From a virus (taxonomy: Duplodnaviria; Heunggongvirae; Uroviricota; Caudoviricetes): a stretch of 13,226 nucleotides of DNA. A program made the position numbers and the translations under genes. The notes under the pieces are model-generated. The model saw only the letters and a program-made list of their open reading frames with translations. It searched no databases and was not told the origin of the DNA. Every line of letters begins with the position of its first letter. Position 1 is the first letter of the stretch. The stretch lies in IMG/VR virus record IMGVR_UViG_2563366869_000004. One strand, 5' to 3'. This document shows, piece by piece, positions 1 through 13,226 of the stretch.

Positions 1-1284
1 TTACAGACTTCTGGAAGGTTGCGCAGCTCTTACAACACGCGGTTGATCTTCCGCAGCGTCTTCCAGCGCACTTAAATCACGGTCTTTCACTTCTGGCATT
101 TTCAGCGCAGAGATTAAACCAATCACTGAATATGCCATGATCATAATGGCGATCGGATACCAGGATTCCGTCATGGTGCAGAAAATACCCGCCAGGATAG
201 GACCAAAACCGGAAGCGATAAGACCACCAATTTCTTTAGAAATGGCCATCCGGGTAAAGCGGTTTTTACAGCCGAACATTTCTGCCATGGTAATGTTTTC
301 CAGAGCAAATAATCCCAGCACCGCACAGTTATGAATCACAATCAGTGCAACCATAATGGTGCTCGGGGCATAGCTTTTATCTACAATGATAGAAAGCATT
401 GGCCATGCCAGCACAATCGCGGAGGTATTCATAATAATATACGGGATCCGGCGACCAATTTTATCGGATAACCAACCAAGGAACGGAATGGTCATAAAGC
501 CGAGAATCGAACTAATCATCAATGCATCTGTTGGAATTGCTTTGTTAAACAATAACGTCTGCACTAAATAGCCTGCAAGGAAAGTCTGAATTAACCCGGA
601 GTTACCCGCCTGACCAAAACGCAGCCCTGTTGCCAGCCAGAAGGATTTGCTCTGGAACATGCTACCAGCAGGTGCAGGTTTTGCTGTGGGTTGGTTGCTG
701 TCATTAACCTTCTCAAAGACCGGGCTTTCTTTCAGATTCATACGTAACCAGATAGCAAAGACCATCACGACAACGCTCGCCAGGAACGGTATACGCCATC
801 CCCACGCCAGCAGTTCCTCTTTACTGAGAATGAAGAACATAAAGGCCCAGATTGCCGTTGCGCTCAAGGTTCCGCAGTTAGTTCCCATAGCTACAAATGA
901 GGAGATAATTCCGCGCTTACCTTTTGGTGCATATTCCGCCAGCATCGTACCGGCACCGGAAATTTCCGCACCTGCACCCAACCCCTGAATAATACGCAGC
1001 GTCACCAGCAAGATGGGGGCAAAAACACCAATCTGTGCATAGGTCGGTAACACACCAATTAAGGTGGTACAGATCCCCATCATGGTGATGGTAATAAAGA
1101 GCATTTTTTTACGCCCTATTCTGTCGCCCATTTTGCCGAAAATAAATGCTCCGACAATACGCGCCACATAACCTGCACCGTAGGTTCCCATTGCCAAAAT
1201 TAACGCCATTGCCGTTGATGATTCAGGAAAAAATATTTCATGAAACACCAACGCTGCGCCGAGCGAATATAACTGGAAATCCAT
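1..1284 (-). CDS. ydfJ: MFS (metabolite:H+ symporter-type) transporter, apparently N-terminally truncated at the prophage junction
   Basis: Complete 427-codon ORF (ATG at 1282-1284, TAA at 1-3). Translation has many hydrophobic spans and the MFS loop motif GKMGDRIGRKKML. It aligns from memory to ShiA/ProP-type symporters but starts at the equivalent of mid-TM1 (DFQLYSLGAALVF vs ShiA DFLLYGITAALVF), so about 30 N-terminal residues are missing. Weak SD upstream. The ydfJ name rests on the Qin-like context and my recollection that K-12 YdfJ is 427 aa. Confidence 0.8.
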   Translation of the reverse strand: MDFQLYSLGAALVFHEIFFPESSTAMALILAMGTYGAGYVARIVGAFIFGKMGDRIGRKKMLFITITMMGICTTLIGVLPTYAQIGVFAPILLVTLRIIQGLGAGAEISGAGTMLAEYAPKGKRGIISSFVAMGTNCGTLSATAIWAFMFFILSKEELLAWGWRIPFLASVVVMVFAIWLRMNLKESPVFEKVNDSNQPTAKPAPAGSMFQSKSFWLATGLRFGQAGNSGLIQTFLAGYLVQTLLFNKAIPTDALMISSILGFMTIPFLGWLSDKIGRRIPYIIMNTSAIVLAWPMLSIIVDKSYAPSTIMVALIVIHNCAVLGLFALENITMAEMFGCKNRFTRMAISKEIGGLIASGFGPILAGIFCTMTESWYPIAIMIMAYSVIGLISALKMPEVKDRDLSALEDAAEDQPRVVRAAQPSRSL

Positions 1285-2000
1285 AATTCACAGATGTTTT
1301 TTCTCATTCTGTGGTTTCCTTGGCGCTTTCTAGGTTTTTTCAGATAGTTACATTTTTTCAAAAGCATCCTGAGTTCGATCTTACTATCTATCTGTGGCCT
1401 ATTTCTGTCCCATATATGCCCCAAAAAACACCCCAACAGATAAGCAATCTTTTCATGGTGTTACGCGTAAAAACAATAACGGCTTGAAATTATTCAATAC
1501 ACTCTCGAAAGTGCATCAGCCAACCGCAGAACGTTATTGCATACAACGTTTCTGCGGCATATCACGAAACGATTACTTAATGACTGGGACTTCAGACCAC
1601 TCAATATCCGGTACAATTATGTATCAACGCAGTTTAACAACACCCTATATTTAATCCAGAGTGCGAGCAACGTTGTCCCTTTCTCTTTTGCACTCTTAAA
1701 ATATACGATTACTTAAGTGAAGATGCTTGACGAATCGCCAAATAAAACATCTTCATCAGCATAAAAATCCATATATGATTGAAAATTTAGTCATTAATAC
1801 CATTCATATCTGAATACTAACCTAATACGCTTACTAACCGTGAGAAATCTTTTTTTTCGACTTAATCACTCGAAATAAACTTTCACTCAATTGAAAACAA
1901 TTAGCTACAATTATCATTGCAATATCAAATCAAACATAACAACTTGCATAAATTCTCATGGGATACAGCATCAGTTGTGCCAAACACATAAGGAATTGAA

Positions 2001-2198
2001 ATGGACGGAGAAAGCTTTAACTTTGATGACAATGATATTGAATTTATTGCTTCAATGTATGCATCATGTAAATTATCAGGAAGTATCGCCCCCATAATGC
2101 ATATAATGGTTAGCATTCCAAAAAATAAGAAAAAACAATTCTACGAACGAGTTGAGCATTATTGTAGTTTATATTCCAATAAAAACCCACCTTCTTAA
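2001..2198 (+). CDS. Small hypothetical protein (65 aa) in the AT-rich region
   Basis: ATG at 2001 is preceded by AAGGAA with about 5 nt spacing. ORF of 65 codons, no recognisable motif. Two other ORFs overlap it in other frames, so coding status is uncertain. Confidence 0.3.
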   Translation: MDGESFNFDDNDIEFIASMYASCKLSGSIAPIMHIMVSIPKNKKKQFYERVEHYCSLYSNKNPPS

Positions 2199-2329
2199 AT
2201 TCGCTGCATTCTAGTGGATTCCATTAAGAAAACAATGACATACACTCAAACACATCTTTTTTATCAACAGTGAATTTCAGTTCGGCCAGTTTTTACCAGC
2301 TATTATAAAAATAGCACCCATATAAAGTT

Positions 2330-2430
2330 TTTACCCCACAGGTACAGCTGGCCATTCGATAACCGCACTAAGGAAGTGCCAACACGACATCAGCAAGACC
2401 CGATATTTCTTCCATGCCGCCAGCAACGAT
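2330..2430 (-). pseudogene. Remnant of a second tail-fibre-assembly (tfa) 3' end
   Basis: 2341-2430 aligns base-by-base, same orientation, with the 3' end of the intact tfa at 3031-3120 (ctggccattc, caacacg, cagcaa, acccgata, ttcttcca, ccagcaacga shared). Minus-strand translation gives ...IEWPAVPVG*, a Tfa C-terminus, but the frame has an internal stop upstream. No ORF of 60 aa or more covers it. Confidence 0.5.
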
Positions 2431-2901
2431 GTTAAGGTTAAATTAATTATAAAAAAATATATTATAATTCCATCTTCGCATTAAATTTTAACCTTTAATC
2501 TCCACACGGAACAAGTTGCATAGGTGACTATATTAAGAAAACTTATAACCACCAAAAAGATTTGCTTTGCAAGCAAAAACAGTGACCATTGACTCTAAGA
2601 AAATTCCGATCTATTGTTAGTGTCATCAAAGTTACTTAACAGTATTCCGAAATGAAAATACAAAGCAAGCTAATTGTCTTATTAAACATTATCATTGCAT
2701 TTATATTATTTGAGCTTTTAGCTCAAAAATTTGGTTTGAGTACATTATTTTAAAGCAAGATAAACAATATCGGGCACTCTAGTTTTTATAATTAACAATT
2801 AAACGCCCATAAAATGTTATTTACTTTTCTTCGCTATTGTCATATCTTAATATAGTGGCTTACGCCACTCTACTTTCATCATATTTTGTACGTTTATGTA
2901 C

Positions 2902-2932
2902 TCGCCATGAAGCTCTTTCATGGCGATTTTTT
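2902..2932 (+). terminator. Rho-independent terminator, plus-strand sense
   Basis: Perfect 10-bp stem tcgccatgaa / ttcatggcga with 5-nt loop gctct, followed directly by tttttt (2927-2932). No A-run on the other side, so it is unidirectional and convergent with tfa. Confidence 0.5.
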
Positions 2933-3018
2933 ATTCTTAATCCAAGAACATACTCCCTACCTATAGAAAAATCACTTTTTGAACAAAAGAATAACGTATT
3001 TAGGTAATCATTACGAAT

Positions 3019-3600
3019 TTACCCTATAGGTGCTACTGGCCATTCAATATCCGGTGCAGTTGTTGTATTAACACGGTTCAGCAACACCCGATACTTCTTC
3101 CAGGCTTCCAGCAACGAGATTTCTTCCTCCGTTGCAATTTCCAGATCTGCAGCATCCTGAAGCGGCGCAATATGCTCACTGGCTACCTGCATCAGGTTGT
3201 TTTTTGTTTCTTCCGCCTCCCGGATCCGGAACAGTTTTTCTGCTTCCGTATCCTTCACCCAGGCTGTGCCGTTCCACTTCTGATATTCCCCTTCCGGCGA
3301 TAACCAGGTGACATTTTCCGGTAACGAGCCAAGTTCAGAAATAAATAACGCGTCGCCGGAAGCCACGTCATAGACGGTTTTTCCCCGATGATCTTCAACG
3401 AGATGCCACGATGCCTCATCACTGTTGAAAACAGCCACAAAGCCAGCCGGAATATCTGGCGGTGCAATATCGGTACTGTTTGCTGGCAGACCTGTATGAG
3501 GCGGAATATATGCGTCACCTTCACCAATAAATTCATTAGTTCCGGCCAGCAGATTATAAATTTTTATGGTCCGTGGTTGTTCACTCATTCTGAATGCCAT
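3019..3600 (-). CDS. tfa: Tail fibre assembly protein Tfa (lambda Tfa-like)
   Basis: 193-aa ORF beginning [48 protein letters not shown], which matches lambda Tfa as I remember it; ends ...IEWPVAPIG. Its ATG overlaps the stop of the upstream stf ORF (TAATG arrangement at 3598-3602). Confidence 0.9.
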
Positions 3601-5297
3601 TATGCAAGCCTCACAATATAGTTAAATGCGATGTTTTTGACGGTGTTTTCCGCGTTACCAGCAGCGTTAACGGTGATGGTGTGTCCATGTGAACCAATCG
3701 CAACGGAGTGCGTATGAGCACCAATACCGACAGTATGCGCGTGTGCACCTGCAGATGCTGCTGTGCCGGACAGTGAGTGGCTATGGTTACCATCTGTACT
3801 GGTATTAGCTAACGCCCCCGTAGACATACCTACTGAGCCTTGTACACCCCAGGTATTTTGACCTGAGCTTGTATAACCATATTGATAAGTATCTTTAAAA
3901 ACACTGGGGTTAAATCGACGGCCATCTCTATGGCTGTGATTACCAGCTGCATTCGTGCTGCCACTTAAACTATGGGTATGCGCACCAGTGTTATTCGTGG
4001 ATTTAGTGCCGTAATCAAACGACGATGTGGTTTTCGTCCCCAAATCAGTACTGGATGCGCTGGCGCTGTGGGTATGCGATTTTATGCCGTCCTGTTCCTG
4101 AGACAATACGGCACGACCACTGGCGGGCTTGCCCTTAATCGTCCAGCCACGCATATCAGGGATCACGCCTGACGGATAAGCGGCTGCAAGTTTCGGGTAG
4201 GCAGATTTGTCAAAAGTCTGCCCCTGCATCAGGGCATAACCAGACGGAACGGTATCTGATGGCCACGGGATTGGTGCGCCGACTGGGTAGCTTTCTGGTG
4301 GAAGATTTTTCGAGGTATAAACTTCTGCCCAGTCTTCCTCAAAACCATAACCGTCTCTTGAAGAACGGTAGAACAGACCACCATTTCTGTAATGCGCCTT
4401 CATCTGCAAGGTCCGGCAACTTCCGACTCCGGTATAGAAGTTAACCAGAATATAGCTGTCGCCAGAGCGGGTGACATTATAAGCGCCTGATTCGGCATTC
4501 CAGGGAACGCCACCATCCGCATCGGCATATGTATCCGTTGCCCTTCTGGCAAAAGCAGCCACATGCGCGGCGGTTAAAGTAATATCTTTGGAACCATCAA
4601 ACTCAACACCAGAAACCCGTCTTGGCGTTTGCAGCTTTGTTGCTGTTAATGCATTACCGTTCAGACTTGCGGACAGTTTGGTTCCAATAACCAGTTCGCC
4701 GGTTGCGTTATCAATAGCAAACGGTCTTAATGTATTCCAGCCACCATAAACATCACCTTGATTGGTAAGCAGCAGGTAAGTTTTAGCGCCATCATTACGC
4801 CATAATGCCCCATACTCCCCACCTATCATTCGAATCTGATTACCACCACGCGCTACAATTTCGTCTGTGGCAAAAAGTTTTTTGCACGACAAGTTATCGT
4901 TAACGATTAATGAATGAGACTCATAAAAACCACGCCCACTCTTAAAATCAAGGATAACGTCCGCCGCGATACATTCAGTCGCCGGATTTGTTGCCCCAAA
5001 CTTATAGGTCGTATCATTAACAACGAGATCAGCACCAGGTGCGGATATTGACAGGCCATCTTCGATAAACGCAAAAACAGGGAAAGCAGCGCCATCAACA
5101 TAGAACACAGAGCGCAAATCATCGCCCTTATTACTCATCATTATTGAGTGGATGGCTCGTTCATTGTTTTGATATTGCCAGAACATTCCATAAGCATAAC
5201 GCCCCCTGTCAGTCCAGCCACCAGGCATAACAAATCCGTTATTCGAGCAACCCACCAGCGATATCAGCAGGAACAGGCAGATCACAGGTTTTTTCAC
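3600..5297 (-). CDS. stf: Side tail fibre protein (lambda Stf-like C-terminal HxH tip domain) with an N-terminal lipoprotein-type signal peptide; probable deletion fusion
   Basis: 565-codon ORF. The C-terminal region ([75 protein letters not shown] ... [29 protein letters not shown]) has the repeated HxH motifs and the ending of lambda Stf. The N-terminus [17 protein letters not shown] is a signal peptide with lipobox LVGC. The start is GTG at 5297 with GGGAGA about 9 nt upstream, in a different frame from and overlapping the 3' end of the Rz-like gene. About 565 aa is short for a lambda-type Stf. Confidence 0.8.
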
Positions 5298-5562
5298 GGC
5301 GGAGAATCTCCCGGTATTCGATTACGGTTTTTTCGGTGCTGGTGTCGATCAGGGAGTTAAGACTGTTGGCATGTTCTGCAACCTGATTGAATCGATTGAA
5401 GTTGAATGCCTGGGTGGCGATTACCTGCCCCAGCATAGAGTTGTCACTTCGCAGAACGTCGTTATCGCTCTGAAGATTACTGGCGTAAGAGCAACTCTTG
5501 ACGAGAGCGACCGAAAGGCCAGCAATAACGACAACGCCTATAAGATCCGGATTAATTTTCAT
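5239..5562 (-). CDS. Rz-like i-spanin (inner-membrane spanin component)
   Basis: ATG at 5560-5562 overlaps the endolysin TGA (ATGA overlap). 107 aa with an N-terminal TM segment ([15 protein letters not shown]) followed by a hydrophilic, probably coiled region; position immediately after the endolysin fits a spanin. The longer six-frame ORF (to 5655) would overlap the endolysin in another frame and is not preferred. Confidence 0.55.
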
Positions 5563-6101
5563 TGCTCCAGCCCCCAGCACGCCAGTGCGCTTTCCTGATC
5601 GCGCCGCTCGACCTGCCCATAACAGCCATTCTTCTGCCCTTTTGTCAGGCGGCAATCACGCCCACCATCTTTTATCCACCAGCGAATCGCCTCGCATGCC
5701 CCCTTACGATCATCGGCATTCAGCCGCTTATAAAACGTCGACGGGAAACACTTACCGGGGCCAATGTTATAGGGACAAAATGACGCTATACCCGCTTTCT
5801 GTGGTTCGGTCAGTGGCACTTTAATATTGCGCTCCACCCATGCCAGCGCCTTATCCCGTTCAATGGCGTTAACCTGGTCGCATTTTTCCTTCGACAGTTT
5901 CATACCGGGAAAAACGGGTTTTCCATCCACCACCGTGGCACCCCGACAGATGGTCCAGATGCCGGAACCATCGCGGTATGCCGTTGTGTGGTTACCTTCT
6001 TTTTCATTCAGAAACTGGTCGAGAATATCAGGCGCAGGCGCACCGACGGCAATCAGTGCCAGAACGGCAGCCGACAGGCCGTATCTGATTTTTACGTTCA
6101 T
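5559..6101 (-). CDS. SAR endolysin (T4-lysozyme-like, GH24)
   Basis: 180-aa ORF, ATG at 6099-6101. N-terminal hydrophobic, Gly/Ala-rich signal-anchor-release-type segment (LSAAVLALIAVGAPAP) followed by the lysozyme catalytic motif E-x8-D-x5-T (EGNHTTAYRDGSGIWTICRGAT). Weak SD. Confidence 0.9.
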   Translation of the reverse strand: MNVKIRYGLSAAVLALIAVGAPAPDILDQFLNEKEGNHTTAYRDGSGIWTICRGATVVDGKPVFPGMKLSKEKCDQVNAIERDKALAWVERNIKVPLTEPQKAGIASFCPYNIGPGKCFPSTFYKRLNADDRKGACEAIRWWIKDGGRDCRLTKGQKNGCYGQVERRDQESALACWGLEQ

Positions 6102-6206
6102 GGATTTTTATCAGGATTTATCGGTTTCTGAACCCTGGATATGTTTATCTGTCCCGGCCTGTTGAATCAGGCAAGGAATAGTTAAATACAATAGAGAGGA
6201 TTGTTT

Positions 6207-6479
6207 ATGGACAATAGCACCATTTCTCTACAGGAGTTGCTCGACTGCATTTCCAAGCTTCGGGATGATGTAAATGCCCTTACTGTCGCATTTTCATATC
6301 TGGCATTCTCAATTCCCAAGGAACAAATGCAACCAACACTGGCATCGCTCCAGCTTGAATCACTCAACCCCAAATGGTCCCAGCAACAACAAAATTCTTT
6401 CAAGTGGCTGGCGATATTACTGGAAGAAAAATATGCTGGTGAAATTACCATTTCGGCGGAGTCTTCAGAGAACCAGTAA
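6207..6479 (+). CDS. Small hypothetical protein (90 aa) encoded opposite to the lysis genes
   Basis: ATG at 6207 preceded by AGAGAGGA (6193-6200) at ideal spacing; TAA at 6477-6479. MDNSTISLQELLDCISKLRDDVNALTVAF... has balanced composition and no motif I recognise. Its 3' end overlaps the 3' end of the convergent YdfR-like ORF by 35 nt. Confidence 0.5.
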   Translation: MDNSTISLQELLDCISKLRDDVNALTVAFSYLAFSIPKEQMQPTLASLQLESLNPKWSQQQQNSFKWLAILLEEKYAGEITISAESSENQ

Positions 6480-6789
6480 TTCTTCCCGGTAGCTTTCCTT
6501 TGTAGGTTATCCACACATTCTGCGCCTCTAAAATTATGGGGCGCTTTTCCGGCGACAGCTCATCCCCTTCACATAACCCGGCAGCAACATCCAGGAAGAC
6601 CTGTCTGATGCTCCTTCTGGCTGCTGCCTCATAAAACTCCAGCGCGGCACCTTCAACACGGTCCAGCGAGATGTCCAGGTCAAAAATTTCACCGTCAAAG
6701 CGTTCTTTGTCCCGTAACGCTAAAGTTACCGTAACTTTATTCTCAAAATTGCGGATCCCTTTCACAATCAGTTCATATTTTTGAGTCAT
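6445..6789 (-). CDS. YdfR-like (DUF1327-type) lysis-cassette protein
   Basis: 114-aa ORF, ATG at 6787-6789 with GGGGAGAG SD, starting 4 nt after the holin stop. It occupies the position between S21-type holin and endolysin that ydfR holds in Qin. Family assignment is by position and memory, not by a sequence match. The C-terminal third may read into inserted DNA. Confidence 0.55.
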   Translation of the reverse strand: MTQKYELIVKGIRNFENKVTVTLALRDKERFDGEIFDLDISLDRVEGAALEFYEAAARRSIRQVFLDVAAGLCEGDELSPEKRPIILEAQNVWITYKGKLPGRITGSLKTPPKW

Positions 6790-6793
6790 TGAA

Positions 6794-7009
6794 TTACTCT
6801 CCCCGTGCAGCCTTACGCTTGTCTTCTTTAATCTTGAAATAAAGGTTTGTCAGGTACGTCAGCAGGCCAAATACCAGGCTACCCAGCACACCTATTGCTG
6901 CCCACTGTGAGGGCGTGACTTTATCGAGCAGCTGTAAAAACCAGTAGCCAGCACTGCCTGCGGAGGTGCCGTAGGCAATGCCTGTTGAAATTTTGTCCAT
7001 GGATTTCAT
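6794..7009 (-). CDS. Phage 21 S-type pinholin with dual-start motif
   Basis: 71-aa [74 protein letters not shown], close to S21 as I remember it. Met1-Lys2-Ser3-Met4 dual start (ATG at 7007-7009 and 6998-7000). Strong SD GGAGGTGA upstream. The six-frame ORF extends to 7066 but the RBS supports 7009. Confidence 0.9.
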
Positions 7010-7113
7010 AGCCTCACCTCCGCACGGAACGGATGGCATAGTTATTATGTGTAGGCTTCCAGACACATCAATCGGAGCCTTAATTGATATATATGCTGGA
7101 GACGATGCAATAT

Positions 7114-7135
7114 AAAAAGCTCGCCGTAGCGAGCT
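7114..7135 (-). terminator. Rho-independent terminator downstream of the lipoprotein pair
   Basis: Minus-sense RNA forms stem AGCUCGC / GCGAGCU with loop UACG, followed by UUUUUAUAUU (plus-strand A-run 7114-7118 adjoining hairpin 7119-7134). It lies between the lipoprotein gene end (7261) and the holin start (7009). Confidence 0.5.
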
Positions 7136-7260
7136 AATAAAATGTATTTCTCTGATATTATGTTTATTTGTATTAGCTCAGACTTGACATCACAGGTTTC
7201 GTATATAGAACATCATCAAATCTGTCAGTTTGCTATGAATGAGATATAGTAATTGAAGAG

Positions 7261-7656
7261 CTAACCTCGCATGTCAAAGCCAGATTTCTGAAAATCTCTG
7301 TAGACTTCCGGATTGTTGAAGGCCGGAAATTTGGCTTTATGAGCTGCGGACTTTATCGCTTCGCAATAGGCTTTATCACCGTTACTGGTAGATATTTTTA
7401 ACGCCGTGCCATCCTGAGAGAATTCCATATGCAACCTGCATTTTTTCCCTTTCCAGTTATGCGGCTCATCAAGTTTGGCATTAATTGCAGCTCTGATTCC
7501 CCGCGCTTGCGCCCCCCATTCATCCTGATCATCCCAGCGTCCTGAACTGCAACTACCTGTAGCAGTAGTTTTGTGGCAATCTGAAGGGTGTAAAGGTGTG
7601 CATCCCGCAACAAAACCGACCCAAAAAGTCAACATAACGATTTTCTTTAATCCCAC
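7261..7656 (-). CDS. Lipoprotein with divergent TolA C-terminal (domain III)-like domain, paralog of the upstream gene
   Basis: GTG at 7656 preceded by GAGGAG at 6 nt; TAG at 7261-7263. Signal peptide MGLKKIVMLTFWVGFVAGC with lipobox VAGC and Thr at +2. C-terminus KKCRLHMEFSQDGTALKISTSNGDKAYCEAIKSAAHKAKFPAFNNPEVYRDFQKSGFDM aligns with the upstream paralog and with the TolA domain III C-terminus, both Cys conserved. Confidence 0.75.
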   Translation of the reverse strand: MGLKKIVMLTFWVGFVAGCTPLHPSDCHKTTATGSCSSGRWDDQDEWGAQARGIRAAINAKLDEPHNWKGKKCRLHMEFSQDGTALKISTSNGDKAYCEAIKSAAHKAKFPAFNNPEVYRDFQKSGFDMRG

Positions 7657-7806
7657 TTCTTGCTCCTCAATCCATTAAAATCTCAGCAATAGTAGTTGTT
7701 ACGTCCGCCACTGGCTCAGAGCTGACTATCCGCTAGATTTAGCTCAGTGCCGTAGTTGTGTCAGAACAAACCTAAGCCGAAACCGTTTATTACAAAACAA
7801 TAAATA

Positions 7807-8235
7807 TCAGGGTTTAAAATCCAGCACCCCATTTTGAAATACTTTATATACTTCCGGCGAAGGGGGGGCAGGTATATCAGCATTCTTTATCGCATTCATC
7901 GCTTCACGACATAAATCGAGGTCTCCACTTTCTCTTTTAACCTCCAGTAGAAGGCCATTCGGGGCCATATGCATTCTCAGTGTACACTCTTTTCCTGAAT
8001 ACTTACTCGCATCCCCGAACTGTTTTTCGATGGCGCTCTTGATTTGATGGGCATACAGACGGATATCCTCACTAACATCAGAAGTACGTTCAGATGAACT
8101 CACATACTGTGTCTCTATTGCTTTATCGGAGTAATATGATGTACGGTCATGATAATTTGTCGATACAGCATCAGTGCACCCGATAATAATCCCACTAATA
8201 ATCAACGTAAGAATTGATGCGCTACGAAAACCCAT
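7807..8235 (-). CDS. Lipoprotein with TolA C-terminal (domain III)-like domain
   Basis: ATG at 8233-8235 preceded by GAGGA at about 5 nt. Signal peptide MGFRSASILTLIISGIIIGC with lipobox IIGC and Thr at +2. C-terminal 85 aa YAHQIKSAIEKQFGDASKYSGKECTLRMHMAPNGLLLEVKRESGDLDLCREAMNAIKNADIPAPPSPEVYKVFQNGVLDFKP matches the end of E. coli TolA as I remember it (YAGQIKSAIESKFYDASSYAGKTCTLRIKLAPDGMLLDIKPEGGDPALCQAALAAAKLAKIPKPPSQAVYEVFKNAPLDFKP), including both Cys and the terminal LDFKP. Confidence 0.85.
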   Translation of the reverse strand: MGFRSASILTLIISGIIIGCTDAVSTNYHDRTSYYSDKAIETQYVSSSERTSDVSEDIRLYAHQIKSAIEKQFGDASKYSGKECTLRMHMAPNGLLLEVKRESGDLDLCREAMNAIKNADIPAPPSPEVYKVFQNGVLDFKP

Positions 8236-8264
8236 TTTTCCTCACATATGTCATATAGTAAAGG

Positions 8265-8294
8265 ATTATATATACCGTTGTTTTGGACGCTCAA
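8265..8294 (-). promoter_or_regulatory. Candidate sigma70 promoter for the lipoprotein pair
   Basis: Minus-sense TTGAGC (-35, plus 8289-8294), 18-nt spacer, TATAAT (-10, plus 8265-8270), about 25 nt upstream of the ATG at 8235. Pattern match only. Confidence 0.35.
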
Positions 8295-8768
8295 ACAGCG
8301 AATCAGATCAAATAAAACGCACATTTGTTAACATTTACACAAAGTCTGCGTGGGATATTCTGAAAGAATATCCATAATGTGGAGAGAATCTATTGAAGTG
8401 CATGGTGCCGGGGGCCTCCCGGTGAATTCAGTACCAGCACCTGAATCCACGATTATCCCATATACCTACTCGCTGATTGCCCCTCCGCACAGGGGGATTC
8501 ACCATGCCAGTTTCTTTTAACAAACTCCCCGCAAACCAGAGAACAGTCAACCGCCTGAATTGTGAAGTATTTAAAAATTTCTCCCGCTAACTGATACCCG
8601 GCTAACAGTCTGGCGTTTTCTTTTTCAGCAACGGGAAAGCAACAACTACCACACCCGCCACCAGCACACCGTCAGCCAGCACTGACATTATCCGGCTGCT
8701 GCAATGCCATTCACAAAAACAGTAAGCAATCACTTTTTACCGTAACAGGTGATAATCCAGATATGTAT

Positions 8769-9122
8769 CTACCCCAGATGAGTAATCCGAAGTTCATCCA
8801 TACCACAGGTCCTGGCTATTCTGTTGTACTCCTGAACAAGAGCAAATAATTCTGAATTAGCAACCATGAACTCATCGCAAACCCTCTGTATAGCATCACT
8901 ATTCAGAATAATAACGTCTCTTCCCGAAAGACGATCAGGAGCACAGAACAAAACTGTCAAACGGCTGAAGGCCTTTGCTCGTGCTGCATTGACTATATCA
9001 ATACGCTGCCTAAGGATGAAACACCCCGACGCCTCATCAATATTCACTCTACCCACACCATATGAATGATAAATATTTAATGCTGAAAAAACCATTAGAC
9101 CGTATAACAAACACTCAATCAA
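8769..9122 (-). CDS. Hypothetical ORF (117 codons) of doubtful coding status
   Basis: Largest ORF between the tRNAs and the lipoprotein genes, same strand as the late operon. Starts with TTG; first in-frame ATG at 9093-9095; no convincing SD; no recognisable motif. Confidence 0.25.
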   Translation of the reverse strand: MIECLLYGLMVFSALNIYHSYGVGRVNIDEASGCFILRQRIDIVNAARAKAFSRLTVLFCAPDRLSGRDVIILNSDAIQRVCDEFMVANSELFALVQEYNRIARTCGMDELRITHLG

Positions 9123-9232
9123 TACTTAACAGAACTTTTATTTTTGACAAACATATAATGTTTTCAACAATATCCTGAGCCAGGTATATTCCAGTATAAG
9201 GCTCTGCCGGAAGGAATCTGGAAGAATGAATA

Positions 9233-9309
9233 TGGCGCGCTGTACTGGATTCGAACCAGTGACCGATTGCTTAGAAGGCAATTGCTCTGTCCGGCTGAGC
9301 TAACAACGC
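9233..9309 (-). tRNA. tRNA-Arg (anticodon UCU), phage-borne
   Basis: Minus-sense 77 nt folds as a cloverleaf: acceptor GCGTTGT/ACAGCGC (one G-U), D-arm GCTC-AGCCGGACA-GAGC, anticodon stem-loop ATTGC-CTTCTAA-GCAAT (UCU at 34-36), 5-nt variable loop, T-arm ACTGG-TTCGAAT-CCAGT, discriminator G, CCA encoded. Confidence 0.9.
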
Positions 9310-9339
9310 TGAATACCGATAATGGACCGCCATCGGGGA

Positions 9340-9357
9340 CCCCCCCCCCCCCCCCCC
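9340..9357. repeat. Homopolymeric C18 tract (G18 in the late transcript) between the two tRNA genes
   Basis: Direct count: one C at 9340 plus 17 C at 9341-9357, flanked by ggggac on the left and gca on the right. Confidence 0.9.
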
Positions 9358-9418
9358 GCACCAACAACCCTGTTATCGTGTCGTCTGCTCTTCCTGATAA
9401 GCTCATGGCGGTTTGTGA

Positions 9419-9494
9419 TGGTGGCCCTTGCTGGATTTGAACCAGCGACCTGGCGATTATGAGTCGCTCGCTCTCACCACTGAGCTAAAGGACC
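9419..9494 (-). tRNA. tRNA with CAU anticodon; closest to tRNA-Ile2 (lysidine, ileX-like), elongator Met not excluded
   Basis: Minus-sense 76 nt GGTCCTTTAGCTCAGTGGTGAGAGCGAGCGACTCATAATCGCCAGGTCGCTGGTTCAAATCCAGCAAGGGCCACCA. Acceptor GGTCCTT/AAGGGCC (one G-U), anticodon loop CTCATAA, T-loop TTCAAAT, CCA encoded. Strong resemblance to E. coli ileX as I recall it. Confidence 0.9.
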
Positions 9495-9530
9495 GGGAGC
9501 AGAATAATAACGGTCCGTAATTAATTCCGC

Positions 9531-9557
9531 AATAAAAAACCCGCTCGGTGGCGGGTT
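9531..9557 (-). terminator. tR'-like intrinsic terminator just downstream of the Q gene
   Basis: Minus-sense RNA stem AACCCGC / GCGGGUU with loop CACCGA, followed by UUUUUUAUU (plus-strand A-run 9534-9539). It sits between the pR'-like promoter and the first tRNA, as tR' does in lambdoid phages. Confidence 0.55.
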
Positions 9558-9604
9558 GTAGAAACTCTTCTAACGTCAGGTATAAAAAGCCCATCTTTAT
9601 GACG

Positions 9605-9632
9605 AATTTACCACAGATTCCGGAAAAATCAA
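9605..9632 (-). promoter_or_regulatory. pR'-like late promoter (putative Q-utilisation region)
   Basis: Minus-sense TTGATT (-35, plus 9627-9632), 16-nt spacer, TAAATT (-10, plus 9605-9610), immediately 3' of the Q-like gene stop (9638) and about 40 nt upstream of the terminator hairpin. TAAATT is the -10 I recall for lambda pR'. Confidence 0.45.
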
Positions 9633-9637
9633 CCTTG

Positions 9638-10459
9638 TTACCTAGTTACCTTTTTTAACTGCCGCTCAGCCCATGCTTCTTCAATATCAAACCGGGTCAC
9701 CAGCGCATCATAGAATTTCTTAACTGTTTTTTCCCATGACGCGCGTGTTATCTGGTTTGTCACCTCGCATATAGCATTAAATGCCTCCGTTGATGGTAGT
9801 CTTTCATAGCCACGACCACCACAACGCTGGCAGTCTCTGATAACAGGCATACCACGTTTTACCGACTCTTCACGGTGAATGGCGACACCACGCCCACGGC
9901 AATCCTTACAGGCGGTGGAAACCTCACCCTTTCCGCCACACTCCGGACAGGCAACTTTTACCACCTCCCTGACTTTTTTCCATTCTTCCCAGTAAGACGG
10001 ATACACACCTTTCGTACACTTTGCCCATACCGGCGGCTTACCATCCGGATACTGGACCTTGTTTGTAAAAACTACGCTTTCAATAAATTTTTCCCCATAG
10101 CAACAAGGGCACTGCTTTTTACTCGCTGCGCTGCGGGCATAATCCTCAAAAGCGTACGAAGCCATAATGCGCATCACTAACGGTTTTATTTCTGCCGGAA
10201 GTTTTCTCAACGCCGCCACACGATCGCACCGACTGAGTGCATAATCTGCCAGTAATTCTGTTGCCCGCGCCCTGTCATTCATACTGATGCCCATTTTCCC
10301 CAGGAACGCAGAAAACCCCATCTCAGCCCGATTCTGTGTCATGCCCTGCGCGGCCATCACATCAGTGATACTCAGCGCATCTTTTGACGTTGAGGCCGAT
10401 GCATCGGTCAGGCAAGGGGATTTTGGGGAGTAGTATTTCGGTAAATCTTCCAGTTTCAT
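9638..10459 (-). CDS. Q-like late antiterminator candidate (QuuQ-like) with cysteine-rich repeats
   Basis: 273-aa ORF whose ATG (10457-10459) overlaps the rusA stop (ATGA). It sits between rusA and the pR'/tR' pair, the canonical Q slot. Contains CPCCYGEK, CPECGGKG, CKDCRGRG and CQRCGGRG repeats. The Q call is by position and size; I could not confirm it by sequence. Confidence 0.6.
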   Translation of the reverse strand: MKLEDLPKYYSPKSPCLTDASASTSKDALSITDVMAAQGMTQNRAEMGFSAFLGKMGISMNDRARATELLADYALSRCDRVAALRKLPAEIKPLVMRIMASYAFEDYARSAASKKQCPCCYGEKFIESVVFTNKVQYPDGKPPVWAKCTKGVYPSYWEEWKKVREVVKVACPECGGKGEVSTACKDCRGRGVAIHREESVKRGMPVIRDCQRCGGRGYERLPSTEAFNAICEVTNQITRASWEKTVKKFYDALVTRFDIEEAWAERQLKKVTR

Positions 10460-10830
10460 TTTTTGACCTGCTCTTCATGCATTATGGGGTAAATCTTCAC
10501 CCCCATACGTCCACCAGATACTGGCTGACCACGAACGATATTGATTTCATCAAACTGCTCATCGTCCATTAACACTCCCGCATGCGTCAGCGCATCCAGC
10601 GGTGCTTTAAGGATATTGTCCAGGTCGCGACGACGCTTATCCGGTGGCTCTGCAATCACCTTTATCGCCAGCCTTCCGGACAGGCTTAATTTCAGCCGCT
10701 GCTGGCGAACAATAAGCGCCACAGCCCGGCGATAACGCTTTCCCTCCTCCGAGATAAAATATGTGCTGCCACGGCGTCGCCAGTAAGTGTTCACCGTCGG
10801 CGGGTAAGGTAAAACCAAATCTATGAGCAT
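10456..10830 (-). CDS. rusA: RusA Holliday-junction resolvase
   Basis: 124-aa ORF with AGAGGTGA SD 4 nt before the ATG at 10828-10830. Contains the RusA-family core DKRRRDLDNILKAPLDALTHAGVLMDDEQ (compare K-12 RusA DRRRRDLDN...KAAFDALTKAGFWLDD as I recall it). Confidence 0.85.
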   Translation of the reverse strand: MLIDLVLPYPPTVNTYWRRRGSTYFISEEGKRYRRAVALIVRQQRLKLSLSGRLAIKVIAEPPDKRRRDLDNILKAPLDALTHAGVLMDDEQFDEINIVRGQPVSGGRMGVKIYPIMHEEQVKK

Positions 10831-10842
10831 CAGTCACCTCTT

Positions 10843-11790
10843 TTACCCAAGCACGCCAGTTGCAAAGGCGTGATCAAGAAAACGAAAGATTAAATCAACC
10901 TGAGAACCATGCTTTTCTTCGAACGCCAGCGGATCCGCATGAAGCTCGTTGTGATGCTCCCGACACAGCGGTAGCGTGAAAATATCGTGAGATTTTGTCC
11001 CCATTCCGCCCTGACCATGACCAATCAGGTGATGGGGATCGTCGGCTGGCTTACCACAACACGCACACGGCTGTGTCTTCACCCAGCGTGTGTATTTCTC
11101 GTTAACCCAGCGGCGACGTTTAGGTCGTTTCATAAAAGATTCCGGAGACTCAGGATCAACGGCAATGCTTACCACCGTCTTTTCCTGTAGTGGGTGTTGT
11201 TCCTGGTGGGCGTGAGGCAACAGTGCAAGATTTTTTGTGCGCTGTTTCAGTATGCTGGTGGCGGTCTGCTCTCCCGGTACGATGTCGCTTTCACGGTACA
11301 TTGAGCGGATTTTTTCCGCACGCAACCCCAGCGAACGACGTAATACCGCTTCCGGTAGCGCGTCCGCCACCTGATTGCGGACCGCCCACCAGGATAATTC
11401 AGCCAGAGATAATTCACGCTCCTGCGTACCGCTTATTGCGTGACCGATGACGTCAATCATCCATGCTGACAGGTTTTGATGAGCAACTTGCTCGAGTGAT
11501 TCGGATGTCTGGTCACGCAGCTGGTTGTCGCAGTGCCAGCACAACACCATTGCGCCGGTACCATAACGGTGAATGACGGTTTCGCTGTGATGATAATCGC
11601 CGTGTGGCCACTGGCAGGATTTAATATGGCGCAACAGCCAGTCAGACAATGCACCAGCACCACCAGCAGCACGAATCACCCGTGCGTTACTGAAAAACGG
11701 CAGCAATGTTTTGTCTTCCACCAGCGGCTGGCGAGCGGCAGGAACGACCCCGGACGGCAGATTACGCATGCTTTTCGGTTCCGGCTCCAC
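10843..11790 (-). CDS. DUF968-family (YdfU-like) prophage protein with C-terminal HNH-like Cys/His cluster
   Basis: 315-codon ORF ending 12 nt upstream of rusA. C-terminal CACCGKPADDPHHLIGHGQGG...CREHHNELH cluster. Start is uncertain: GTG at 11790 has no SD and the first ATG at 11769 has poor context, so the gene may be 5'-truncated. Confidence 0.7.
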   Translation of the reverse strand: MEPEPKSMRNLPSGVVPAARQPLVEDKTLLPFFSNARVIRAAGGAGALSDWLLRHIKSCQWPHGDYHHSETVIHRYGTGAMVLCWHCDNQLRDQTSESLEQVAHQNLSAWMIDVIGHAISGTQERELSLAELSWWAVRNQVADALPEAVLRRSLGLRAEKIRSMYRESDIVPGEQTATSILKQRTKNLALLPHAHQEQHPLQEKTVVSIAVDPESPESFMKRPKRRRWVNEKYTRWVKTQPCACCGKPADDPHHLIGHGQGGMGTKSHDIFTLPLCREHHNELHADPLAFEEKHGSQVDLIFRFLDHAFATGVLG

Positions 11791-11812
11791 CAGTAACCGG
11801 GTATTGTGGAAT

Positions 11813-11911
11813 ATGCCATGGGATAACAGTCCATGCTTTTACAACCTGGAAGAAATTGATCGCTGGATTGAGCGCCAGGCATCAGCGAGACCAAGACGTC
11901 ATCTTACTTGA
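11813..11911 (+). pseudogene. Possible excisionase (xis) 3' remnant upstream of int
   Basis: Plus-strand frame ending TGA at 11909-11911, 20 nt before the int ATG, reads ...MPWDNSPCFYNLEEIDRWIERQASARPRRHLT*. The EEIDRWIERQ end resembles the C-terminal helix of Xis/AlpA-family proteins. The longer frame (from 11711) starts with TTG and overlaps the DUF968 N-terminus. Weak call. Confidence 0.25.
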
Positions 11912-11945
11912 CTAAAAGCCACACTAACTAATGAGAGAAGTTGAA

Positions 11946-13226
11946 ATGAAATATCCGACAGGCGTGGAAAACCATGGAGGGAAATTACGTATCTGGTTTG
12001 TTTATAAAGGCGTAAGAGTCAGGGAAAATCTGGGGGTTCCTGACACAGCAAAAAACAGGCGCGTTGCAGGTGAACTACGCGCCTCTGTTTGTTACGCAAT
12101 AAAAACTGGTGTTTTCGACTATGCAAAACAGTTTCCCTCCTCACGCAATCTGGAAAAATTTGGTGAGGCCCGACAAGATTTAACCATAAAAGAACTGGCT
12201 GAAAAATTTCTGGCACTGAAAGAAACTGAAGTCGCCAAAACATCACTCAACACATACCGTGCCGTCATCAAAAATATCCTGAGCATAATCGGTGAAAAAA
12301 ATCTTGCCTCATCGATTAATAAAGAAAAATTACTGGAGGTTCGTAAAGAGTTACTGACTGGATACCAGATCCCCAAAAGTAACTATATTGTTACACAACC
12401 AGGGAGATCGGCTGTAACTGTAAATAATTACATGACAAATCTTAACGCCGTGTTCCAGTTTGGTGTTGATAACGGTTACCTGGCAGATAATCCGTTTAAG
12501 GGGATCTCGCCATTAAAGGAATCAAGAACCATTCCGGATCCTCTTTCGCGGGAAGAATTTATCCGTCTTATCGATGCGTGCAGAAATCAGCAAGCAAAAA
12601 ATTTATGGTGTGTTTCTGTTTATACTGGCGTTCGCCCTGGTGAGCTGTGTGCACTTGGATGGGAGGACATAGATCTGAAAAATGGAACAATGATGATCAG
12701 GAGAAATTTAGCAAAAGACCGTTTCACGGTACCAAAAACACAGGCGGGAACCAATCGGGTCATTCATCTTATTAAGCCAGCAATCGACGCTCTCCGGAGT
12801 CAGATGACATTAACGAGACTGAGCAAAGAGCATATCATTGATGTTCACCTCAGAGAGTATGGCAGAACAGAAAAACATAAATGCACCTTTGTTTTTCAAC
12901 CTGAAGTGTCAGCGAGAGTAAAAAATTATGGTGACCATTTTACCGTTGACTCAATAAGGCAGATGTGGGACGCAGCGATAAAACGTGCCGGACTCCGCCA
13001 TCGAAAATCATATCAGTCGAGACATACTTATGCCTGCTGGTCGCTGACAGCTGGTGCTAACCCGGCATTTATAGCAAACCAGATGGGCCATGCAGATGCG
13101 CAAATGGTATTTCAGGTATACGGAAAATGGATGTCTGAAAACAATAATGCACAGGTAGCTTTGTTAAATACACAGTTAAGCGAGTTTGCCCCAACCATGC
13201 CCCATAACGAAGCAATGAAAAATTAA
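11946..13226 (+). CDS. int: Tyrosine site-specific integrase (lambda-integrase family)
   Basis: Full ORF to TAA at 13224-13226. Catalytic-region motifs near the C-terminus (RHTYACWSL...HADAQMVFQVYGKW). N-terminus MKYPTGVENHGGKLRIWF resembles the prophage IntR/IntS type. Start chosen at ATG 11946 (purine-rich GAGAGAAG upstream); an in-frame ATG at 11931 is the alternative. Confidence 0.9.
   Translation: MKYPTGVENHGGKLRIWFVYKGVRVRENLGVPDTAKNRRVAGELRASVCYAIKTGVFDYAKQFPSSRNLEKFGEARQDLTIKELAEKFLALKETEVAKTSLNTYRAVIKNILSIIGEKNLASSINKEKLLEVRKELLTGYQIPKSNYIVTQPGRSAVTVNNYMTNLNAVFQFGVDNGYLADNPFKGISPLKESRTIPDPLSREEFIRLIDACRNQQAKNLWCVSVYTGVRPGELCALGWEDIDLKNGTMMIRRNLAKDRFTVPKTQAGTNRVIHLIKPAIDALRSQMTLTRLSKEHIIDVHLREYGRTEKHKCTFVFQPEVSARVKNYGDHFTVDSIRQMWDAAIKRAGLRHRKSYQSRHTYACWSLTAGANPAFIANQMGHADAQMVFQVYGKWMSENNNAQVALLNTQLSEFAPTMPHNEAMKN

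Follow-up and report, generated by a model that had tools for sequence, protein, structure and literature searches.

ORF90, a 90-codon open reading frame running opposite to the lysis genes of a Qin-type prophage of E. coli, is, judging from comparative sequence analysis, a genuine protein-coding gene under purifying selection, and the DNA that carries it has taken the place of the 3' end of the adjoining gene, ydfR. ORF90 is probably an autonomous accessory ("moron") cassette gene encoding a small binding protein, the uncoupling of the endolysin gene from ydfR being a side effect of its presence. Morons are autonomously expressed prophage genes that are dispensable for the lytic cycle (bioRxiv 10.1101/2022.10.28.514194; PMC7067206). 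The whole stretch of DNA analyzed, hereafter the window, is 13,226 bp long and 100% identical to E. coli chromosomes; it corresponds to a decayed Qin-type prophage with a truncated ydfJ on one side and an integrase gene on the other. The same sequence is also found as IMG/VR contig UViG_2698536480_000007. In addition to the lysis genes listed in Table 1, the minus strand harbors a truncated spanin-like gene abutting a truncated tail-fibre gene.

The initial annotation of this DNA had described a 90-codon plus-strand ORF within a gap of about 340 bp between the ydfR-like gene and the endolysin gene, convergent with the former and overlapping its 3' end. This description proved accurate: the interval between the ydfR stop and the endolysin start measures 343 bp (6102-6444), and ORF90 shares 35 nt with the end of ydfR (6445-6479). 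The strong and well-spaced Shine-Dalgarno (SD) sequence attributed to the gene is also present, 6 nt before the ATG, although its position had to be shifted by about 1 nt to the left. Predicted pairing energies with the anti-SD were -6.4 kcal/mol for ORF90, -8.6 kcal/mol for ydfR and -13.8 kcal/mol for the holin gene. The endolysin gene, in contrast, was considered devoid of an SD because the energy of its anti-SD duplex was +0.3 kcal/mol, in agreement with what had been noted earlier.

Table 1 Features of the lysis region discussed in the text (positions are those of the window).
Feature	Position	Strand	Evidence or remark
Relic of the K-12-type ydfR end, AAAAATCCATGA	6098-6109	-	TGA still over endolysin ATG
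SAR-type lysozyme (rrrQ-like endolysin), 180 aa	5559-6101	-	Phage_lysozyme, E=1e-23
Segment without K-12 Qin counterpart: leader, ORF90, terminator-like site, alternative ydfR 3' third	6110-6583		Alignment
Conserved box CCCTGGATATGTT	6133-6145	+	TAT..T unchanged in all 11 sequences (four genera)
Imperfect inverted repeat (possible leader hairpin), box to SD	6146-6184	+	Predicted dG -13.4 to -19.1 kcal/mol
Shine-Dalgarno sequence AGAGAGGA, 6 nt 5' of ORF90 ATG	6193-6200	+	Anti-SD pairing
ORF90, 90 codons, ATG 6207 to TAA 6479	6207-6479	+	phrog_2411; WP_001593363.1
Terminator-like hairpin, GCGCCTC-N9-GGGGCGC then TTTT	6522-6548	+	43-69 nt past ORF90 stop, inside ydfR
YdfR-like gene, 114 aa	6445-6789	-	DUF1327, E=7.6e-43
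S21-type class II holin, MKSM dual-start motif	6794-7009	-	Phage_holin_2_1, E=9e-36

To assess the coding status of ORF90, nine different versions of the gene, drawn from E. coli and E. albertii and 84-99% identical in nucleotide sequence, were compared; all nine kept the frame open over exactly 90 codons. Outside the overlap with ydfR, the part of the gene to which the selection figures refer, pS was 0.244 and pN 0.085, yielding a dN/dS ratio of 0.30, and variable sites numbered 25, 18 and 39 at codon positions 1, 2 and 3, respectively, position 2 being the least variable as predicted for a true frame. Fisher tests supported an excess of synonymous changes in three window-versus-variant pairs (p=0.0006, 0.003 and 0.015), with p=0.15 in a fourth. 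An intact 90-aa ORF was present in 78 of 80 IMG/VR loci; a few genomes carry frameshifted forms of 94 aa, and a few truncated copies also occur. The identical protein was found on at least 1000 contigs, invariably labeled hypothetical. In complete E. coli genomes it bears the PGAP label WP_001593363.1, hypothetical protein, and its entire length matched phrog_2411 (function unknown; E=5.1e-59, with residues 1-90 aligned to all 90 positions of the profile).

It is highly improbable that gene callers picked up a frame left open by chance, or an antisense shadow cast by coding or RNA constraints on the minus strand. The few frameshifted copies and a similar dN/dS of 0.25 in one antisense frame are what such a reading could appeal to; the latter value is nevertheless expected, since that frame shares third positions. 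The initial annotation had named the shadow of a longer YdfR C-terminus as a possible objection. The antisense ORF, a minus-strand frame of 110 codons (6182-6514), differs in frame from ydfR and is interrupted by stop codons in six of the nine variants, whereas ORF90 is open in every one of them, which rules the shadow out. Also at odds with a non-coding origin are the low variability of codon position 2, the conservation of the SD, whose core (GAGGA or AAGGA) is kept in all relatives of ORF90, and the existence of homologues that, at 30-40% identity, hold the frame, the length and the hydrophobic core in unrelated genomic contexts. Thus, the opposite-strand gene is real and equipped with a good ribosome-binding site, as first proposed.

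How this gene came to separate ydfR from the endolysin gene was apparent from the alignment with the Qin prophage of K-12. There, the stop codon of ydfR overlaps the start codon of rrrQ (ATGA), indicating that the two genes are contiguous and probably translationally coupled; the contiguity assumed for S21-type lysis genes thus holds true in this prophage, whose cassette is missing ORF90. Homology to K-12 spans the lysozyme gene and ~10 nt 5' of its ATG, and returns only at ~6584, within ydfR near codon 69-74, such that ~474 bp of the window (roughly 6110-6583) stand for ~100 bp of the K-12-type cassette. The GC content of this segment is 0.445 compared to 0.541 for the endolysin gene. Residues 1-74 of YdfR are 82% identical to K-12 YdfR, and the C-terminal third is unrelated. 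With the last third of its gene replaced, YdfR (hereafter YdfR114) is here a chimera with a different C-terminus, ending in GRITGSLKTPPKW, a tail that recurs in the small late-strand genes adjoining the relatives of ORF90 in other genera. The earlier notion of an insertion was therefore right insofar as extra DNA is present relative to K-12, but this DNA was not cleanly inserted between genes. The relic AAAAATCCATGA of the former ydfR end persists next to the endolysin gene, and no start codon now feeds its frame. The proposal that endolysin expression was altered likewise fits the sequence: the translational coupling to ydfR is gone and the endolysin gene is left without an SD. The N-terminal domain of YdfR, an RNase E binder that also co-purifies with RNA (PMC13232886), is the part conserved in the YdfR of the window.

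The two alleles are both common. Among 5426 complete E. coli genomes, 1052 carry the junction of the window (at ≥80% coverage) and 1776 the contiguous K-12 junction, which has zero spacer rather than an interval of equal length lacking the extra DNA. Most of the 1052 copies are probably the same Qin-locus allele transmitted by vertical descent, and their number thus overstates independent retention. Exactly the same arrangement occurs in the complete genome of an isolated phage, Chlobot, and is thus compatible with productive lysis.

Sequences surrounding ORF90 were next compared across the family. Four genera have three upstream elements in common: a box, an inverted repeat and an SD. The box reads CCCTGG(A/T)TAT(G/T)(T/G)T, in which T, A, T and T are invariant, and TATGTT at 6140-6145 within it is a plausible candidate for the -10 element of a promoter proper to ORF90, the -35 being poor. 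A consensus scan for promoters and terminators detected neither element of ORF90; the terminator-like hairpin located beyond its stop was missed because the loop is too long. In E. coli, this hairpin is weak (9-nt loop, only four T) and is weakened in one variant (L006). The corresponding hairpin and U run are strong in Yersinia and plausible in Citrobacter, and all lie inside the convergent late-strand gene. Between box and SD, the inverted repeat may form a structure in the leader RNA: in eight E. coli variants, 90% of cells were paired, with zero double-sided changes in the covariation analysis, and one compensatory change from T-A to C-G distinguishes Citrobacter from Atlantibacter. TACAAT at 6187-6192 was rejected as a -10 element in that transcription would begin within the SD and the motif is not conserved outside E. 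coli. A LexA box and a CsrA site in the leader were dropped upon visual inspection, neither motif being present or conserved across the variants, and a search of positions 5500-7400 against Rfam at a permissive threshold returned Prion_pknot as its sole match, by chance.

The remote-homology and structure searches suggested in the initial annotation brought to light relatives in further genera and no fold match. An exhaustive search with a profile, followed by an iterated one, retrieved homologues at 30-60% identity from Citrobacter, Atlantibacter, Yersinia, many Serratia species, Chania, Gibbsiella, Chimaeribacter, Sodalis and Acerihabitans. The resulting family is unnamed, restricted to Enterobacterales, made up of proteins of 83-97 aa and devoid of any Pfam domain. 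Its alignment reveals the core ELL..I..L...vN.L..AFSYLAF, with Y31, L32 and E51 invariant, the latter residue being part of a conserved ESxN stretch that comes after the second helix.

The genomic contexts of these genes vary. In its E. coli form, the YdfR114-ORF90 pair follows the S21 holin gene and precedes either a lysozyme gene or a holin8/holin3_7/M15-peptidase set, the latter as in Stx2k phages; in one E. coli locus (L015), ydfR is deleted and ORF90 intact. The relative found in Citrobacter prophages lies upstream of a holin gene, that of Atlantibacter between the tail genes M and L, and that of Yersinia after tail gene I. Phage-borne members were antisense to the late genes in every phage context examined. 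In Serratia marcescens, the relative (X) is a chromosomal gene located in the conserved stretch rne-pyrC-dinI-X-bssS-solA, and the Sodalis one stands isolated on the chromosome; these and related chromosomal homologues preserve the same length and core across genera. The members found in tail regions and on chromosomes indicate that the family is not tied to lysis genes. A search of viral and metagenome contigs for further insertion contexts returned the same Yersinia locus or nothing, and one Logan contig (L115) carried a relative without the conserved flanks. In three of the loci (L017-L019), a bor gene was observed ~1.1 kb from ORF90 in the same orientation. In related Stx2k phages, an IraM/PmrD-like moron sits directly upstream of the holin gene.

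The late-strand gene that converges on ORF90 was found to have features of its own. In Citrobacter, Salmonella, Atlantibacter and Yersinia, this partner encodes a family of 63-71-aa proteins, with a form of 238 aa at one Citrobacter locus. The partner proteins and YdfR114 of E. coli have a C-terminal tail in common, (E/R)KITGSLxxP in most of them and looser in Atlantibacter (DQIFGDLKKPP), and the synonymous differences between the tail codons of different genera may reflect selection on the peptide. In Citrobacter, the nucleotides encoding the tail double as part of the terminator-like hairpin. The C-terminus of YdfR114 was not retained as a member of the 63-71-aa family: in a profile search, YdfR114 fell short of the E≤0.01 cutoff, the resemblance being confined to its last ~22 residues. 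In Salmonella, the partner is intact beside a decayed ORF90 homologue. Together with the E. coli locus that retained ORF90 without ydfR, this indicates that the gene pair is not obligate; each gene being kept without the other, the obligate pairing of a toxin-antitoxin-like system was not found.

The product of ORF90 is a 10.2-kDa acidic protein (pI 4.34). Its maximum 19-residue Kyte-Doolittle mean of 0.88 points to the absence of a transmembrane segment, and hence to a protein that is not membrane-embedded. AlphaFold2, run with a 52-sequence alignment, predicted helices at residues 8-35, 38-52 and 59-76 followed by a disordered tail (pLDDT 79). Scans of ORF90 and 52 family members against Pfam, NCBIfam and PADLOC returned nothing consistent; ORF90 matched none of the Pfam holin and spanin families and nothing in a comparison to PDB sequences and a fold library, the best PDB-sequence profile match (YibL, E 0.25) having been dismissed as noise. 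Literature searches on DUF1327 and ydfR yielded nothing about ORF90. The ORF90 product would most likely be a protein binder acting as a small regulator or connector, rather than an enzyme, a membrane protein or a DNA binder, given its size, its charge, its helical fold, the lack of catalytic or membrane features, and the location of the Serratia homologue amid small regulators of stress and biofilm formation.

The reading that we favor, that of a moron, is based on the absence of the gene from the same site in collinear relatives and on its varied positions in different phages. According to this model, the cassette would run counter to late transcription in lambdoid prophages, with ORF90 being transcribed from its own weak sigma-70-type promoter and transcription stopping at the hairpin and T run within ydfR. 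If ORF90 indeed has its own promoter and terminator, its synthesis in the lysogen would not require Q-dependent late transcription and would yield a soluble acidic three-helix protein with AFSYLAF as its conserved hydrophobic core and an invariant E51. Any effect on lysis would be collateral, with the endolysin gene deprived of both its coupling to ydfR and an SD, and with the late mRNA gaining 343 nt of untranslated sequence to which the ORF90 mRNA is complementary.

The initial annotation had envisioned roles in lysis control, anti-phage activity or immunity, none of which gained positive support from relatives residing among tail genes and on the Serratia chromosome, or from PADLOC, which yielded no match. 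A lysis regulator would act either through the ORF90 protein binding to the holin, YdfR or the SAR endolysin, or through the antisense mRNA, which is fully complementary to the stretch of late transcript separating ydfR from the endolysin gene and might tune endolysin production or lysis timing by way of RNase III cleavage or transcriptional interference. We consider it unlikely that ORF90 is such a regulator, despite its location inside the lysis cassette, its overlap with ydfR and the fact that the Citrobacter relatives adjoin a holin gene (two of the four phage contexts being beside holins). Endolysin expression must indeed differ from that of the K-12-type allele, as the gene is without SD or coupling, and the binding of RNase E by the N-terminal domain of YdfR leaves room for an interplay at the RNA level (PMC13232886). 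However, ORF90 lies on the strand opposite to the late operon and is not co-oriented with it in any phage context, has relatives in tail regions and on the chromosomes of Serratia and Sodalis, all without a lysis gene in the vicinity, precedes endolysins of unrelated types, and is kept where ydfR is gone. Selection, moreover, acts on the protein, beyond the antisense stretch alone.

Alternatively, ORF90 made in the lysogen could keep out superinfecting phages, make their infection abort, or antagonize a host defence, perhaps together with the partner bearing the KITGSLxxP tail. Exclusion or defence is a frequent function of antisense morons (PMC7067206), the ORF90 protein is small and acidic, and a late-strand partner with a conserved tail accompanies the gene in E. 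coli, Citrobacter, Yersinia and Atlantibacter. Such a role nonetheless appears improbable in light of the PADLOC searches, which at E≤1 gave no match for ORF90, two of its relatives, YdfR114 or the partner, of the non-obligate nature of the pair (decayed ORF90 in Salmonella, missing ydfR in locus L015), and of the Serratia gene between dinI and bssS, which resembles a small housekeeping regulator rather than a gene from a defence island. Very unlikely, in our opinion, is a scenario in which ORF90 and the late-strand frame that it overlaps form a mobile convergent two-gene cassette whose products or RNAs interact, amounting to a new prophage switch controlling lysis timing or abortive infection. 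In its favor, all phage-borne copies adjoin a late-strand gene with this common tail at its end. The ORF90 protein would then recognize the KITGSLxxP tail, or its mRNA would pair with the late transcript, such that the onset of late transcription could be sensed or gated; in E. coli, the tail would have been grafted onto a YdfR protein with an RNase E-binding N-terminal domain, with the Serratia gene located between dinI and bssS as a cellular ancestor or a domesticated copy.

Lambda bor and lom, which encode envelope proteins of known phenotype, are reportedly morons of lambdoid phages (Juhala, Hendrix and co-workers). As these genes do, ORF90 represents extra DNA relative to collinear relatives, placed on the opposite strand in or beside the late operon, with a candidate promoter and terminator, a GC content below that of the endolysin gene, and variable positions. 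Unlike Bor and Lom, its product is predicted to be cytoplasmic, and its cassette replaced the end of ydfR and overlaps this gene convergently instead of being slotted between genes. T4 RIII is a cytoplasmic lysis-inhibition cofactor which ORF90 may resemble in being small, soluble, helical and near a holin gene; no sequence or fold match was obtained for ORF90, however, and it lies on the strand opposite to the lysis genes and has family members away from holins. By analogy only, ORF90 is reminiscent of small connectors or anti-adaptors of enterobacteria such as AriR/YmgB and IraM, which are also helical, acidic, ~90 aa in size, often borne by prophages or islands, and act by protein binding, although none of the 52 members of the ORF90 family matched such families in Pfam.

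Previously known were the annotation of ORF90 as a hypothetical protein, its inclusion in a PHROG and the existence of morons as such. Both phrog_2411 and WP_001593363.1 are labels of unknown function, neither of which links the E. coli proteins to those of Citrobacter, Atlantibacter, Yersinia, Serratia and Sodalis. New are the connection of ORF90 to a wider Enterobacterales family including a chromosomal Serratia gene, the replacement of the 3' end of ydfR by the E. coli cassette, the conserved flanking signals, and the tail common to the convergent partners.

ORF90 is found in about one E. coli genome in five and belongs to an unnamed Enterobacterales family of small helical proteins, one member of which is a conserved chromosomal gene of Serratia. 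If it acts on host stress responses or biofilm formation, or in phage conflict, it would add one more function to those of lysogenic conversion, which would not upset the prevailing view. The allele that carries it is a common form of the S21-type lysis cassette in which YdfR is chimeric and the endolysin gene is without translational coupling, and the K-12-type allele and this one thus make up a natural pair for the study of endolysin translation and of the effects of an antisense moron on late genes.

ORF90 is the 90-codon plus-strand gene between the endolysin and ydfR-like genes. The genes that face its relatives outside E. coli encode a family of small late-strand proteins (63-71 aa, with a 238-aa form in one Citrobacter locus) with a coiled-coil-like N-terminus, found in prophages of Citrobacter, Salmonella, Atlantibacter and Yersinia. 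In every case, the partner gene was convergent with an ORF90-family gene or its remnant. A KITGSLxxP-like C-terminal tail was common to these proteins and to YdfR114, the 114-aa YdfR-like protein of the E. coli window, the Atlantibacter tail being looser (DQIFGDLKKPP). A homologue of ORF90 was also found on the Serratia marcescens chromosome, within a conserved rne-pyrC-dinI-bssS-solA region; proteins resembling it are distributed across Serratia and allied genera.

Among the other loci carrying ORF90, four Stx2k-type phages (L005, L009, L011 and L012) harbor the S21 holin-YdfR114-ORF90 block and, after it, another complete lysis set made up of holin_8, holin_3_7 and an M15 peptidase. In these phages, an IraM/PmrD-like gene in the opposite orientation occupies the interval from stx2B to the holin. 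In L009, insertion of an IS66-family element splits ORF90 from its conserved upstream box; L001 carries an element of this family upstream of the holin. ORF90 is intact and ydfR deleted in the L015/L016 lineage, which bears a ParE/ParD-like pair.

Coordinates of features in the window and in related loci (L-numbers)
Feature	Locus	Position	Strand	Remarks
Tail-fibre gene	window	3600-5249		5'-truncated; adjoins cut spanin-like gene
Spanin-like gene	window	5242-5562		cut; adjoins 5'-truncated tail-fibre gene
Holin	window	6794-7009		N-terminus MKSMDK
Terminator-like hairpin + T run	window	7118-7135	minus	strong; 7 bp, 5 G-C; ~110 nt upstream of holin start
TolA C-terminal-domain protein gene 1	window	7261-7635		just upstream of holin; lipoprotein-like N-terminus
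TolA C-terminal-domain protein gene 2	window	7807-8235		upstream of holin; lipoprotein-like N-terminus; pseudogene per PGAP
tRNA-Arg(tct) + CAT-anticodon tRNA	window	9233-9309 and 9419-9494		directly downstream of Q antiterminator gene
IS66-family element	L009	1339-3927		73 nt upstream of ORF90, inside leader inverted repeat
ParE/ParD-like toxin-antitoxin pair	L015/L016	1589-2123		downstream of lysozyme
93-aa ORF90 homologue	L021	5001-5282		S. marcescens chromosome, between dinI and bssS
Partner-family members	L022	5239-5430	late
	L024	5261-5476	late
	L029	3206-3421	late
	L028	3239-3955	late
	L111	3001-3192	late

The window is filled from end to end (1-13226) by a decayed 13.2-kb Qin-type prophage, with an integrase gene at one end and a truncated ydfJ at the other, in which DUF968 and xis persist only as fragments and neither a repressor nor an early region is present. 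The location of its tRNA genes relative to Q is common to many lambdoid prophages; the CAT-anticodon tRNA was called Met by ARAGORN and Ile by PGAP. Locus L022 of Citrobacter and locus L111 of Salmonella each have a TolA-domain gene as well. The hairpin preceding the holin is a candidate terminator that could be read through by Q-modified polymerase. S21 holin has a dual-start arrangement yielding 71- and 68-residue products. Because the MKSMDK start of the window allele matches this arrangement, the allele is predicted to retain its own holin/antiholin timing device.
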